In this document: positions 13,890-19,696 of the stretch, one piece after another | Numbering within the stretch: position 1 is the first letter of the stretch | Layout: every line of letters starts with the position of its first letter | NCBI GenBank assembly: GCA_965206645.1 | Contig: CBDBKE010000002.1 | Location: forward strand, 128,001-192,000 | DNA length: 64,000 bases | Source of the DNA: Terriglobia bacterium | Lineage (GTDB): Bacteria > Acidobacteriota > Terriglobia > JAJPHL01 > JAPKYU01 | Direction: 5' to 3' | Notes under the pieces: generated by a model | Told to the model about the DNA's origin: nothing | What the model saw: the letters and a program-made list of their open reading frames with translations, nothing else | The model's database searches: none | Translations under genes and position numbers: made by a program

Positions 13890-14499
13890 ACCAAGCGGTC
13901 TCACACCCATTCTGGAAAGTGTGAGTCGAGACCTCGACACGCAAGCCGGCGTAGAGGAACAACACGGCAAGATCGAAGCTCTGTTCTCCGAGCTCAAGCG
14001 GCGCTCAGGCCCGCGGCGGCGCCTTTTCGTTGTCACCCAAATACCTCCCAATAGTAGCTGCCCAGGATGAGATAGCGCTCCCGATTGGTGGTGGTATCCG
14101 ACAGGTCGAAGTGATACAGCTGGCGGCCGATGCCCCGAATCTGTGTGGGCTAACACAACAGGGTTACGGCACAATCTACGTCCCACTTTTTCCTCTTGCT
14201 CGTCCGAATTTAGGCTTTCGCCAATGGGGCGGGTCTTGCTCCTAAATAGGAAGTCAGGCCCGACAGAGGATTGAAAAGTTGAAAACCTCTGCGAGTAGGG
14301 GGACGTGCGCTTGGTTGCCTACCAGCCTAAACGGCTTCACCATGTGCGTGTACCTCGATCCAAAGGATGGTGGCATTGTAGGGAACCGATAGTAGGGCCT
14401 CAATAGATCGGAAGCTACATTTTTGACGCAGTACGAAATTCCTACCGGAGACCGTGGGACTAGTACTGTCGCCAAGCGGATGTGGAGCGAGTCCGAGTC

Positions 14500-14742
14500 C
14501 ATGTTTCCACTGAAGCCGCCCGCCACATGGTTCCCGGAAGCCTGCCAGCAGGCGAACGTTCTCAACTTCACCTGGCACTGCTTTCGTCACACCTTTGCCA
14601 ACGGGCTTGTCATGGCGGGAGTCGATCTGCGGACCGTGCAGGAACTGAGGGCCACAAGAGCATCTTGACCACGATGCGGTATGCACACCTAACCCCTGGC
14701 CATCAGGTCGCAGCCGTTGAGCTTCTGGGCGGCCCCAACTGA
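14500..14742 (+). pseudogene. Tyrosine integrase C-terminal remnant (frameshifted)
   Basis: FTWHCFRHTFANGLVMAGVDLRTVQEL in one frame continues as GHKSILTTMRYAHL in the next (H-x-x-R, H and Y catalytic residues). Confidence 0.85.
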
Positions 14743-14819
14743 CACCCTTGCTGACACCAGGGCTTTTGAGTTTACTGGTGATGAATTGGCTGTTGCGGTG
14801 TAAACAGTTTGTAGTGAAG

Positions 14820-14905
14820 TGCCCGGGGCGGGAGTCGAACCCGCACGGCCCTTTGGGGCCAAGGGATTTTAAGTCCCTTGCGTCTGCCAGTTCCGCCACC
14901 CAGGC
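14820..14905 (-). tRNA. tRNA-Leu(UAA), CCA not encoded
   Basis: GCCTGGGTGGCGGAACTGGCAGACGC-AAGGGAC-TTAAAA-TCCCTT with a long variable arm, GTTCGACTC T-loop and acceptor stem GCCTGGG/CCCGGGC. Confidence 0.97.
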
Positions 14906-14923
14906 GTGTTGAACACAATGAAG

Positions 14924-15300
14924 TTAGCTGACATGGCGTTCGGATTCGCCTTCGGGTGTGGGGAATTTTGTGGGGACTAGTTGCACTTTTGTACCTTCTG
15001 GCAGTCTTCTAACAGCCTTTTCGTTCATAGATTCCAGCCGCTCGAAGACCCGCTCCAGGGATTCGGGCGAAGGGTGCACGTACCGCTGGGAAACGGTCAC
15101 GCTGGAATGTCCCATCAGTCGCTTAATCTCAAAAGCGTCAGCCCCAGCCTCGCCCATGCGAGTTCCGAAGGTGTGCCTGAGAGAGTGTACCACGAAGTCT
15201 TTGCCCAGCTTCAAGACCCCCCGAGTCCGGGCATGCTGATCGTCTAACGTAAAGTTCGCGAGTGGGCGTAGCCATCTTCGCTAGTGAATACCCAAGGTGT
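14924..15300 (-). pseudogene. Second tyrosine integrase C-terminal remnant
   Basis: HSLRHTFGTRMGEAGADAFEIKRLMGHSSVTVSQRYVH; an upstream PWVF patch lies in another frame; the N-terminal domains are absent. Confidence 0.85.
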
Positions 15301-16702: not shown

Positions 16703-16765
16703 CTACTCCGCGATCCGGCCACCGTCGATGACGATATCTGTTCCGGTGATGAATCCCGCTTCTTC
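16703..16765 (-). pseudogene. C-terminal relic of an SDR oxidoreductase
   Basis: EEAGFITGTDIVIDGGRIAE* is the classic SDR C-terminus; the rest of the gene is absent. Confidence 0.55.
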
Positions 16766-17088
16766 TCTACATAGGTTCGGCCCTATAAATCCGCAGCGCA
16801 ACCCCGCCTGAGCACGCCACGTGCCACCTATTTTCGGCTCTGAGCGAGATTACTACTTGATAACTGCGACATACCAGCCAAGATGGCGTGACGATAGCTG
16901 TGCGATAAATAAAGGCCGCCAAGCCCCCACACCCTCCAAGCTGGAACATAGGTAAACACTCGCCCGTTAGTGGGAACCTATCCGGCAAAGGTAACCGATA
17001 ACCTGTCATCGCTTGACCTGAACCGCGCAGTCCATTGACTTACCCAGAACAAGCCTACTACACTGTGCTTCACTTGAGGAGGACACGA

Positions 17089-17184
17089 GTGTACGAGGAA
17101 ATTCGTGTTCCAATTTGGCTTATCATAGTCATTGGCATCGCCATTTTCGTGGCGTTCACTAGCCGCCGTGCGCCCCGGCTGTAA
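17089..17184 (+). CDS. 31-aa single-TM small protein (not in ORF track)
   Basis: MYEEIRVPIWLIIVIGIAIFVAFTSRRAPRL; GAGGAGG SD 6 nt before the GTG; upstream TTGACT-N18-TACACT (17035-17064). Confidence 0.6.
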   Translation: MYEEIRVPIWLIIVIGIAIFVAFTSRRAPRL

Positions 17185-17357
17185 GTCGAGAAGCCATCAA
17201 GCCATCAACAGCGGTCACAGAATCCGACGCCCATTAATTGGGGGACCCTGCCTAGAGGGAGAGTCAGACTTATGCAATCTTGCATATCTTCGACCTTCCC
17301 CTAGGACTACTCGACCGGGAGGGTGAGGCCCGAACATGGCCGTTTCTTGACGTCGCA

Positions 17358-17456
17358 GCCTAACGGCAGGCTTCAGCGGCCGTGGGGGGCTGAGAAGATA
17401 CCCGCCTGGCACCTCCTCCTCGCACCCCCACCGTCCGCTGCAAGCCCGTGTTAGGC
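17358..17456 (-). mobile_element. Integron attC site (99 bp)
   Basis: Minus strand: R'' GCCTAAC, 5 bp, L'' CTTGCAGC ... L' GCTGAAG, 6 bp, R' GTTAGGC. There is an extra base in L'' and an extra A just inside; the site lies 34 bp after the stop of the cassette gene. Confidence 0.85.
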
Positions 17457-17489
17457 TCGTCTACACGACGCGCTGCCATAGCAGTTTAG

Positions 17490-18251
17490 CTACGGCTGAG
17501 GCCCAATCGGGTGGGTTTTCAGGAGTTCCTTCGCTACTTGGGTTGCCTTGGGAGCACATGCGGGATGTCCCCAACCACCTGCACTCACGCCGTTCGTAAT
17601 GTCATTCACAATATTATCGTCTTTCGTCGGGCTCACTCCCGCAGGAACGTTGTCCAAGTTGAGTGTATGGCGGACCTTCCACGAGATGTTATGGTCTGCG
17701 CAGGAGCTATCACCACTGACGCCAACCGCTCCCACCAGTTTGCCATCGTGATCATACAAGGGCAAACCACCGCCAAACACATTCACTCCTCCAATCTTCT
17801 GACCGACCATAGGGTCCTTTGCCGTGCCAATGGCGTCAGAAGGGCCGCCATAGGCCACGTCCGTAGCCACGGGATTGCTCAACTGGAGCCCAAACAAACT
17901 CCCTCCTGGCTGCACCGCTGAAAAGAGATTTGCCGTTGATAACGCCAGTCCCGGAAGACTGAACGCATTGGCCGTGTTGGCTTTTTGTGCCGAGATGACC
18001 CGGCTCCCCGGCCATTGATCGCCTCGCGCTTTCCCGGAAAAAACGACGGCCCGCACCACACCATCCCGGTCGACGATAGTGGCCCACATATGGAGACCAA
18101 AGCCTCCGTTCTCCTCTGCAACCACCGTTTTCAGGGCGGCCTGGAGTTTCGCGTGGGTTGGTAAGTGACTGGCTGCAGGTAAAAACATGGCAGTCAATAC
18201 AACGGTTGCCACAGCAGCACTGAGGATTCCTTTCTGGTCTTTCATGCTCAC
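17490..18251 (-). CDS. Secreted haem-binding protein (GlcG/HbpS, DUF336), gene-cassette ORF
   Basis: Signal peptide; ATIVDRDG, ISAQKANTA, FGGGLPL and GAVGVSG motifs; AAGGAGG SD. Confidence 0.88.
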   Translation of the reverse strand: MSMKDQKGILSAAVATVVLTAMFLPAASHLPTHAKLQAALKTVVAEENGGFGLHMWATIVDRDGVVRAVVFSGKARGDQWPGSRVISAQKANTANAFSLPGLALSTANLFSAVQPGGSLFGLQLSNPVATDVAYGGPSDAIGTAKDPMVGQKIGGVNVFGGGLPLYDHDGKLVGAVGVSGDSSCADHNISWKVRHTLNLDNVPAGVSPTKDDNIVNDITNGVSAGGWGHPACAPKATQVAKELLKTHPIGPQP

Positions 18252-18281
18252 AACCTCCTTGTTGACGATGCCAGCTTCGGA

Positions 18282-18300
18282 GCCTAACTCTTGTTTAGGC
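18282..18300 (-). other. attI-like simple site
   Basis: GCCTAAA-CAAGA-GTTAGGC has the same layout as attI1 (CCCTAAA-ACAAA-GTTRRRY). Its TTAGGC is the exact complement of the attC R'' GCCTAA. Confidence 0.7.
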
Positions 18301-18349
18301 TGACCTGGATAAAACCGGCCGGTCGGCCTAGCACTAGAGAGGTGCGCGG

Positions 18350-18379
18350 AGTGTAGGTCCTGCTGGCGTGGATTGTCAA
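18350..18379 (-). promoter_or_regulatory. Pc-like sigma70 promoter facing attI and the cassette
   Basis: TTGACA (18379-18374), N18, TACACT (18355-18350). Confidence 0.65.
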
Positions 18380-18432
18380 CAGCGCGCCAGCACTTGGTGG
18401 CTGGTTGGACCCCACAAGTGCGGCAGACGGCA

Positions 18433-18447
18433 GTTCAGCTAGTGTTT
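18433..18447 (+). promoter_or_regulatory. Putative LexA box (GTTC-N7-GTTC type, one mismatch)
   Basis: GTTC-agctagt-GTTT, at the position where an intI promoter would lie. Confidence 0.35.
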
Positions 18448-18499
18448 ACCTTGATGATTTCTCGGTTGTGCGCACCGGGCGGGGACAAACTCTCGGGAG

Positions 18500-19696
18500 C
18501 TAGCTATTCGGCGGGCTTGCTCCCACGGGCACCTCGACCATGTTGCTCGGCACACCGATGTTGATGATTTCCAGGTCGTGACTAACGGGCGGGATCGCAC
18601 CCTCGGGGGGCTGGCCAGTCGGCGGGGTTATTCCCACGGGTCCCTCGACGTTCACCTGGTACAGCCCCACGAATCCCGGGGCCAGGCCGGAGCAGACCAC
18701 CTCAGCGGGAATGCCGCCGATGTTTACCAACGGCGGGCTAACGGTTCGCGCCAATGGCTCCGTGCCGGGGGCAACATTGCCGGATGGCACTTCCGGCAGG
18801 ACCGGCCCCAATCCCGTGCAAAAGATCAGCAGGAACTCGCCCGGCTGTGCCGGGTTGCTCTCGGTGACGGGCTGGAAATCTGCCGCGTGCAGGATCGCCC
18901 CGGCGCCGGTGCCCTGCTGGTTCTGCGTAAAAATCCCCGGCGATACGGCCGCAATCGCGACCGGCTGCGCCGTGCTGGTTTCACCGCCCCGTGTCACCTG
19001 CACCGTGACCACGCCCGCTCCGGATACCAGCTCAAACGGCACCTGCGCATTGATCTGCGTGCCAGAGACGAAAAATAGCGCGGCCGGTATGCCGTTGAAG
19101 GTCACACTGGTTTCTCCCAGCATGGTGGGTAGAGGCACCTCCGACGCTACCTGAGTATCGCTGGCCAGCTCCGTCCCAAAGATGGTCACGATCGCGCCCG
19201 GAGCGATAAAGGATTTGGGCTCCGTCGCCGCCCGGAAGCTGGCGCCGTTGACCACCGAGTCGGGCGGCAGGATCGGAGGCGTCGGCGGCTCGCTCAATGT
19301 GACCGCGACCGAAATAAAAAACGTCTCGCCGCTGTCGCTAGTGCCGATGACGCGTGCCTCACTGACCCCAGGCCCCGGCAAGGCCCCGTAATTAATTGTC
19401 ACGGTGAAAGACGCCCGACCCGGCTCAAACGTCGCCGAGGGCGGAACACTGAGCCAGCCTGTTCCGTTCATGAAATCCACCGAGAGAGTAAAGAGGACGC
19501 TTCCATGTCTTTCGCAGACCTGAATTGTCTCGTTTACCATCACAACATGCTGTGAAGGCGGAACTCCCATGGAGGCGGAAATACCCAGGACCCGTGGAGA
19601 CATGCAACCGCTAATGTCTTGTCCGAACGCGGGTCTCGCAAAGATCAATGCCAGACAGCAGACCGCAAAAAATACCAACCGCCGAATGGACATCAT
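18500..19696 (-). CDS. Secreted TIGR03437-type (Acidobacteria C-terminal domain) protein
   Basis: VVNGASF, IAPGAIVTIFG, FVSGTQINAQVP, SPGIFT and GLAPGFVGLYQVN motifs; N-terminal signal and BACON-like WLSV segment. Confidence 0.88.
   Translation of the reverse strand: MMSIRRLVFFAVCCLALIFARPAFGQDISGCMSPRVLGISASMGVPPSQHVVMVNETIQVCERHGSVLFTLSVDFMNGTGWLSVPPSATFEPGRASFTVTINYGALPGPGVSEARVIGTSDSGETFFISVAVTLSEPPTPPILPPDSVVNGASFRAATEPKSFIAPGAIVTIFGTELASDTQVASEVPLPTMLGETSVTFNGIPAALFFVSGTQINAQVPFELVSGAGVVTVQVTRGGETSTAQPVAIAAVSPGIFTQNQQGTGAGAILHAADFQPVTESNPAQPGEFLLIFCTGLGPVLPEVPSGNVAPGTEPLARTVSPPLVNIGGIPAEVVCSGLAPGFVGLYQVNVEGPVGITPPTGQPPEGAIPPVSHDLEIINIGVPSNMVEVPVGASPPNS

Follow-up and report, generated by a model that had tools for sequence, protein, structure and literature searches.

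A single gene cassette at a dispersed attI-like element in a Terriglobia genome without an integron integrase

Results and Discussion

The stretch of DNA analysed here (the window) comprises 64,000 nucleotides of a Terriglobia bacterium (GenBank assembly GCA_965206645.1, contig CBDBKE010000002.1, positions 128,001 to 192,000) and harbours a gene cassette of the integron type, composed of one open reading frame (ORF) for an HbpS/GlcG-like protein and one attC site, which begins at the last bases of a ~110-nt element. No integron integrase (IntI) was detected in the genome, the element itself is dispersed, and other copies of it have received other cassettes at precisely the same base. The best explanation, to which we would give a probability of roughly 0.7, is that IntI inserted the cassette at a dispersed attI-type element and that the locus is now a single attC site lacking an integron integrase (SALIN).

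According to this explanation, a circular cassette, carrying the gene of a putatively secreted HbpS/GlcG-like protein together with its attC, was at one time integrated by an integron integrase at the G/TT of the ~110-nt recipient, which IntI would have bound as an attI-type site. The inserting enzyme may have acted in trans or may since have been lost, and with the genome now devoid of IntI the cassette would have been left stranded as a SALIN. The gene, which has a ribosome-binding site of its own, would be read from a promoter in or above the element, the candidate being TTGACA-N18-TACACT. The element, which is scattered over the genome and over several families of the class, has repeatedly acquired cassettes of different kinds at one and the same base. 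The coordinates of the features discussed below are listed in Table 1.

Table 1. Features of the cassette locus and of its upstream neighbourhood (positions of the window)
Feature	Position	Strand	Remarks
Gene cassette, 924 bp	17364..18287	minus	from TT of the upstream G/TTAGGC to G of attC R'
attC site, 99 nt	17358..17456	minus	33 nt after the ORF stop codon
attC R'' GCCTAAC	17456-17450	minus	
attC R' GTTAGGC	17364-17358	minus	
attC L boxes		minus	GCAGCGGAC / CCGCTGA
ORF, 251-253 aa	18251/18245..17490	minus	HbpS-like / GlcG / DUF336 family
Dispersed ~110-nt element, one copy	18282..18390	minus	nhmmer 52.4 bits, E 1.3e-13; model R2 53.3 bits
attI-like simple site GCCTAAA-CAAGA-GTTAGGC	18300-18282	minus	GCCTAAACAAGAGTTAGGC
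Sigma-70-like site TTGACA-N18-TACACT, candidate cassette promoter (Pc)	18379-18350	minus	
GTTC-N7-GTTT, proposed LexA box	18433-18447	plus	
TIG / TIGR03437 (Soli_cterm) protein, co-oriented upstream neighbour	18500..19696	minus	TIGR03437 1.1e-60, PF01833

A genuine attC site

The R'' and R' core sites (RYYYAAC and GTTRRRY) are complementary at 7/7 positions, and the distance between them falls within the criterion of 50-150 nt. Folded as single-stranded DNA, the site reaches -35.2 kcal/mol (z = -5.0), a value equalled by none of 200 shuffled sequences, and in a scan of the whole 4.4-Mb genome by regular expression and folding only one of the 124 strand candidates surpassed it in energy per base. 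The hairpin is imperfect, with an unpaired central spacer; its extrahelical bases, G, A, G and T, occupy the 5' arm when the coding strand is read, equivalent to the 3' arm of the bottom strand. A covariance model (R1) was aligned from 41 attC sites of eight arrays lying beside integrases of the same phylum, the arrays being derived from 25 regions fetched around integron integrases of relatives and the site under study being left out. This model matched the site with 56.4 bits (E = 3.6e-12 in the window with the filters off, E = 2.5e-10 genome-wide), so that the attC of the original prediction is recognised by a covariance model of attC sites from its own phylum. The score is specific to the strand, the opposite one yielding 22.9 bits only. 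The next-best match in the window, also with the filters off, reached 16.7 bits (E = 0.049), there being no second attC nearby.

The orientation of the site fits the gene because it is the 5' arm of the ORF strand that carries the bulges; the same placement on the coding strand was found in seven of the eight arrays checked against the direction of their ORFs, L047 being the exception. The L-box words GCAGCGGAC and CCGCTGA also recur in attCs of arrays beside real integrases. The attC is genuine, far beyond chance, and since no integrase accompanies it, the locus is a SALIN.

A chance resemblance to attC, with the hairpin being a common terminator or a REP-like (repetitive extragenic palindromic) sequence behind a normal chromosomal gene, is very improbable. 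The absence of attC from 78 of 80 loci of homologous genes and the vertical inheritance of the locus between this genome and a sister species (G001) agree with such an origin; however, no T-run follows the hairpin, the terminator scan does not list it, and it does not belong to a repeat family. The genome-wide E value of the model, its strand-specific score, the L-box words shared with real attCs and the boundary signature described below argue against a chance resemblance as well. Rfam gave no match for the region.

Three further attC matches in the genome (C4:1926648, C4:1926996 and C2:412090) stand without a convincing cassette context and were set aside. The six letters after attC, TGCGAC, also occur behind one copy of the element in another genome; this likeness was treated as chance because the letters past GTTAGGC show no consensus across the copies. 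A 46-bp stretch just downstream of attC (17267-17312) is an indel polymorphism, being absent from G001 and from one contig of a public sequencing run, in which 17266 is joined to 17313.

The cassette boundaries carry the mark of integrase activity proposed in the original prediction. The 7-mer GTTAGGC upstream of the gene is the exact reverse complement of R'', and the TTAGGC with which the cassette starts pairs with GCCTAA. The predicted limits and length of the cassette, as well as all the other predicted coordinates, proved to be correct.

Absence of an integrase

The best match of the genome to the integron integrase model TIGR02249, situated on another contig, scores 86.9 bits, far below the cut-off of 265, in agreement with the claim that the platform has no integrase. 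None of the four genomes of the genus has a TIGR02249 match at E <= 1e-30. Integrases above the cut-off are encoded by six of 61 relatives and are common in the phylum at large, with 123 of 401 genomes, a count which takes in the unpublished genomes G205 and G106.

Integrase-less attC sites number 2-11 in each of the same-family genomes. The genome under study contains at least one further integrase-less group, a two-cassette cluster of attC sites lacking an integron integrase (CALIN) at G000:C4:2093096-2093771 (L061 1501-2176, minus strand), with attC matches of 35.5 and 28.7 bits lying 0.6 kb apart. A 145-aa protein, showing a faint, below-cut-off FosA-like match (E = 0.0065), ends 17 nt before one of these attCs; a 103-aa protein encoded between the two looks HTH-like (helix-turn-helix) by eye.

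The recipient is one copy of a dispersed element

A search of relatives with the DNA of the locus returned many short matches, all to 18334-18277, which served as the source of the element alignment. Aligned copies have the consensus GAAGTCGTTACA ... GTTTCGTGTTAGGCCGACCGGGACCGGTTTTATCCAGGTCAGCCTAAACAAGAGTTAGGC. The original prediction had regarded the platform as belonging to a single chromosomal integron; the matches in relatives reveal a dispersed element instead. The simple site forms the 3' end of the element, which ends in G/TT exactly where the cassette starts. In the copy studied here the 3' half (18339-18282) is well conserved and the 5' half has diverged; its TTGACA aligns with GTTACA of other copies, 43 nt before TAGGCC as counted by eye.

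The genome contains 10-11 copies (11 by nhmmer), among which the present one is the second best, and a sequence-only model detected the element in 39 of the 151 class genomes, at 1-11 copies per genome. In addition, the 34-nt core of the element is covered 8-28 times more deeply than its flanks in four public runs (metagenome and metatranscriptome contigs), and many different sequences are joined to it at 18282-18285. Genes upstream of the copies are unrelated and occur in either orientation (MalQ, MnmG, PriA, EF-G, an aminotransferase and others). Those downstream are co-oriented with the element and mostly accessory in kind, including RibD_C, cupin, SnoaL, zf_Tbcl, a DUF4258 toxin, KatG, an Eco57I-type methylase, Schlafen/AlbA_2, a radical SAM enzyme and a NucS-like protein.

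Six full-length copies had no match in Rfam, and the simple site, scoring 11.5 bits with R1 (E about 1), is not an attC. The idea of a folded element, based on two changes that seemed to restore a helix, was dropped when 67 and 242 of 500 shuffles did equally well. Directly upstream of another copy of the element, repeats of 80-110 nt (L172 1198-1390, G000:C2) were noticed, which have many copies in G001, G002 and G003.

Cassettes captured at the same base

Scanning 30 loci with R1 over +-1.5 kb revealed 10 in which the element is followed by a same-strand attC; an upstream attC was present in one, and the opposite strand gave no match except the mirror of the site described above. Among further high-scoring copies from other genomes, four of six are followed by attC (the match in L188 is weak, and only 296 nt are available behind the element in L189), and among copies with 5 kb of downstream sequence two of 19 are, L194 behind a gene for a 476-aa radical SAM protein and L201 at 3.5 kb. 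Altogether a same-strand cassette with attC follows ~16 further copies, bringing the number of cases to ~17. The occupied copies belong to at least 10 genomes of at least four families, most of them without intI.

In G005:C698 (L016) the element starts 45 nt past the stop codon of a C-terminal intI fragment and is followed by a DUF4258 toxin-antitoxin cassette with its attC (39.4 bits), and further along the contig there is a second intI fragment with more attCs. A 123-bp direct repeat with TTGACT-N17-TATAAA precedes each of these fragments (L016 275-395 and 1365-1486), and both intI genes seem to have been cut at the 5' side by the same sequence.

The last seven bases of the element differ among the copies (GTTAGGC, GTTAGCC, TTTATAT, GTTAGCG and others) and equal or approximate the reverse complement of R'' of the attC that follows. 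Over 15 cassettes, the four variable junction letters match the reverse complement of their own R'' at 49 of 60 positions, a value lowered by two of the 15 rows being in a slightly wrong register. Permutation gave a mean of 37.1 (sd 2.6), with four of 20000 trials as high, and the R' box at the 3' end of the same cassette agrees at 32/60 positions only. This pattern is the textbook footprint of IntI-mediated insertion at G/TT; the boundary signature that had been predicted for the TTAGGC and R'' of one cassette thus holds here and generalises to the others. Since the element is dispersed and has been used repeatedly at the same base, it is better described as a distributed landing pad than as the stump of one integron.

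Landing pad or regulatory leader

The resemblance of the simple site to that of attI1 had been predicted, and its geometry indeed equals that of the real site. In attI1, taken from an Escherichia coli plasmid record, the sequence CCCTAAA-ACAAA-GTTAACC shows the same CCTAAA offset (-11 to -6), the same 5-nt spacer and the same G/TT crossover, and both sites have further GTTA-type boxes in direct orientation upstream. The differences are that these boxes are ~46 nt apart in the element and ~15 in attI1, that the element is multi-copy and not situated beside intI, and that homology does not extend beyond the simple site. The same geometry is found in simple sites before the first cassette of integrons in the phylum. 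As in an attI, cassettes join at G/TT, and an inverted L/R simple site is combined with direct boxes upstream. No covariation in favour of a fold was seen in the element, which agrees with a site recognised in double-stranded form. In our reading the element is therefore a dispersed, attI-like landing pad with putative IntI binding.

A less probable alternative is that the element is a regulatory leader or promoter that happens to offer IntI a good target, an inverted CCTAAA/TTAGG followed by GTT, where cassettes land as at an attG hot spot. This would account for the many "empty" copies found 6-100 nt ahead of diverse co-oriented genes, for the unrelated housekeeping genes upstream and for the lack of association between element and IntI at the genome level, and attG insertion near resident promoters is indeed documented (Loot et al., 10.1101/2022.09.11.507474). 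However, an attG site needs GWT only, whereas here a conserved 110-nt unit with attI1 geometry has been used at one exact base in ~17 cases, and one copy, that of G005:C698, occupies the place expected of attI after an intI remnant. Nor is any -10/-35 pair common to the copies; the "empty" ones, moreover, precede genes of accessory type (a restriction-modification methylase, Schlafen/AlbA_2, the DUF4258 toxin and the radical SAM enzyme). On balance, the attI-like landing pad is favoured roughly two to one over the regulatory leader or hot attG site, the two being not fully exclusive.

Several observations weigh against an IntI-inserted cassette at a dispersed attI-type element. The genome-wide R1 search scored 150 of 7769 first-look candidates and was therefore incomplete, and the assembly, with four contigs and 97.9% completeness, leaves gaps in which an integrase could sit. 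In 35 + 21 integron loci the element was never found beside an intact IntI, the intI fragment of L016 being the only instance, and IntI exceeds the cut-off in two of the 39 element-bearing genomes (G461 and G495), which amounts to no association at the genome level. None of the nine other copies scanned in this genome has an attC (three over +-1.5 kb and six with 5 kb downstream, L212 being left out). About half of all the copies examined lack an attC; the element thus also exists "empty" before ordinary-looking genes, and it may be primarily regulatory.

The state of the locus in relatives belongs to the same side of the balance. G001 has mutations in both GTT cores (GTGAGGC in place of the upstream GTTAGGC, and TTTAGGC at R'), the loop has a 9-nt insertion, and the attC score is down to 31.2 bits. 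The mutated cores indicate that the sites are decaying, with no sign of selection on them. Finally, a cassette-free allele of this locus was not found in relatives or in public reads.

The upstream region and the supposed loss of intI

The promoter TTGACA-N18-TACACT, the simple site, the gene and attC were found where the original prediction had placed them and in the same order. The integron promoted by that order, a single chromosomal one whose intI behind Pc was replaced by the 3' end of a TIGR03437 gene with the LexA box surviving, is nevertheless improbable. Beyond the order of the parts, it gains some credit from relatives of the family, which carry decaying intI fragments. The supposed platform, however, is one of the 10-11 copies of the element in the genome, and no remnant of intI was found within 18390-19696 or anywhere nearby. 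The upstream gene, with the end of its stop codon at 18500, is a member of an extensive paralogue family and does not encode an integrase; in G001 only its last ~590 bases are left. Nothing indicates that intI ever occupied the place of this gene, and the proposed replacement is not supported.

A divergent intI behind Pc had been presented as the normal layout. It does occur in the phylum (L046, L179 and L186), together with a second layout in which intI is co-oriented with the array lying past its 3' end (L039, L049, L058, L182 and L183); because several integrons of the phylum have the latter, the divergent intI is not even the local rule.

As for the LexA box, the consensus in Acidobacterium is GTTC-N7-GTTC. 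The proposed GTTC-N7-GTTT is present, yet the relaxed pattern occurs five times in the window, the expectation being 3.3, and five is attained in 25 of 100 shuffles; G001 also reads GATC at one half-site, so that the motif is at chance level and not kept. It is judged to be a chance match.

The TTGACA-N18-TACACT site agrees with the sigma-70 consensus at 10/12 positions; two such sites are present in 3.4 kb against 1.1 expected. It is kept in G001, and its -10 part is not common to other copies of the element. In two studies, metatranscriptome contigs hold the ORF and its leader but break in the repeated core; such contigs cannot show a start, and as the libraries may hold DNA, they are no proof of transcription. 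Expression of the cassette gene and its recombination in trans, both suggested in the original prediction, are putative.

The only tyrosine-recombinase sequences in the vicinity are two C-terminal pieces at 14423-15214, on opposite strands and flanking tRNA-Leu(taa) at 14819-14905. They were considered as an intI remnant and rejected, as they score equally for XerC and IntI and are situated past the 3' side of the cassette. The sequences flanking this spot are ~23-28 kb further apart in G001, and the spot looks like a worn integration site of a genomic island.

The cassette gene

The likely start of the ORF is the ATG at 18245, 8 nt past AAGGAGG, and the product matches PF03928 (HbpS-like) with 52.5 bits (cut-off 25; E = 6.6e-14), which bears out the strong Shine-Dalgarno sequence and the HbpS/GlcG family assignment of the original prediction. 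NCBIfam yielded no family match for the product. By sequence, its closest solved chain is EfgA (6bws, 6.8e-9). The hydrophobic N-terminus, judged by eye, looks like a signal peptide.

The best relatives of the protein, with identities of 81-62%, are scattered over many phyla: Candidatus Thiomargarita (81%) is followed by Candidatus Thiosymbion, Thermodesulfobacteriota, Brocadia, Scalindua, cyanobacteria and a metagenome-assembled genome (MAG) of Nitrosopumilus. Such a spread fits a travelling gene. By the model, attC is present at two of 80 homologue loci, one of them in a cyanobacterial MAG (L088), where it lies 33 nt past the stop codon on the strand of the gene; the scan of homologue loci by regular expression and folding found no attC directly after the gene. 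The HbpS-like cargo, which had been called unusual, is therefore rare and not unique.

The locus in relatives and its downstream flank

The locus is shared with sister species G001 (93% identity), which dates the insertion to before the two species separated. It is missing from G003, a member of the same genus, and no joint skipping the cassette was seen in public reads. The cassette locus is probably a fossil. A further search for an empty site, made at another copy of the element, returned repeats only.

The stretch 17009-17204 was considered as an unoccupied copy of the locus and rejected, since it proved to be a small multi-copy ORF of the opposite strand. This ORF (17035-17184, plus strand), situated just downstream of the cassette, encodes a hydrophobic product of 49 aa and has a promoter-like site of its own, TTGACT-N18-TACACT; 17009-17204 is 86-87% conserved at other places in G001 and G003, as a small multi-copy gene or element would be. 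The 900 bases from attC to the Ldh_2 gene contain no intact gene. Within them, a 32-aa ORF (16703-16801, minus strand) ending in ...GFITGTDIVIDGGRIAE appears to be what is left of the C-terminus of a short-chain dehydrogenase.

Comparison with known systems

The usual explanations for cassettes without an integrase are that they are wrecked integrons or that they were inserted at loose GWT sites. By itself, the locus represents an ordinary SALIN of a known kind, and it is the recipient site that deserves attention. Tentatively, and at somewhat less than even odds, the element could be a portable multi-copy attI, in other words a "distributed integron" with many docking sites, perhaps each with a promoter, that capture single cassettes whenever IntI is present, be it for a short time or in trans. 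If so, this would explain how families without intI gather attC cassettes, and the "empty" copies would be the equivalent of an In0 without integrase. Should IntI recognise the element, it would represent a new integron layout with many attI sites and no resident integrase, as well as a simple annotation marker for cassette capture. A limited literature search returned no description of a dispersed integrase-less attI, nor of one among the integrons of Acidobacteria.

SALINs, CALINs, attG sites and cassette insertion near resident promoters are described by Loot et al. (10.1101/2022.09.11.507474). The locus resembles the SALINs presented there in having one ORF, one attC and no integrase, with a promoter-like site just upstream. 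It differs in its target, since attG as given there is an unconserved GWT unlike att sites, whereas the recipient here is a conserved multi-copy unit of ~110 nt. The classes CALIN and In0 of IntegronFinder (Cury et al. 2016, PMC4889954) likewise designate incomplete sets of integron parts, although there is apparently no class for an attI-type site without integrase, nor for a repeated one. The ΔattI-type gene cassettes of mobile integrons (PMC12901181) share with the element the occurrence of an attI-derived sequence apart from its integrase. There, however, a partial attI forms the ends of cassettes in clinical class 1 arrays, whereas the element described here is dispersed over chromosomes and heads single cassettes.

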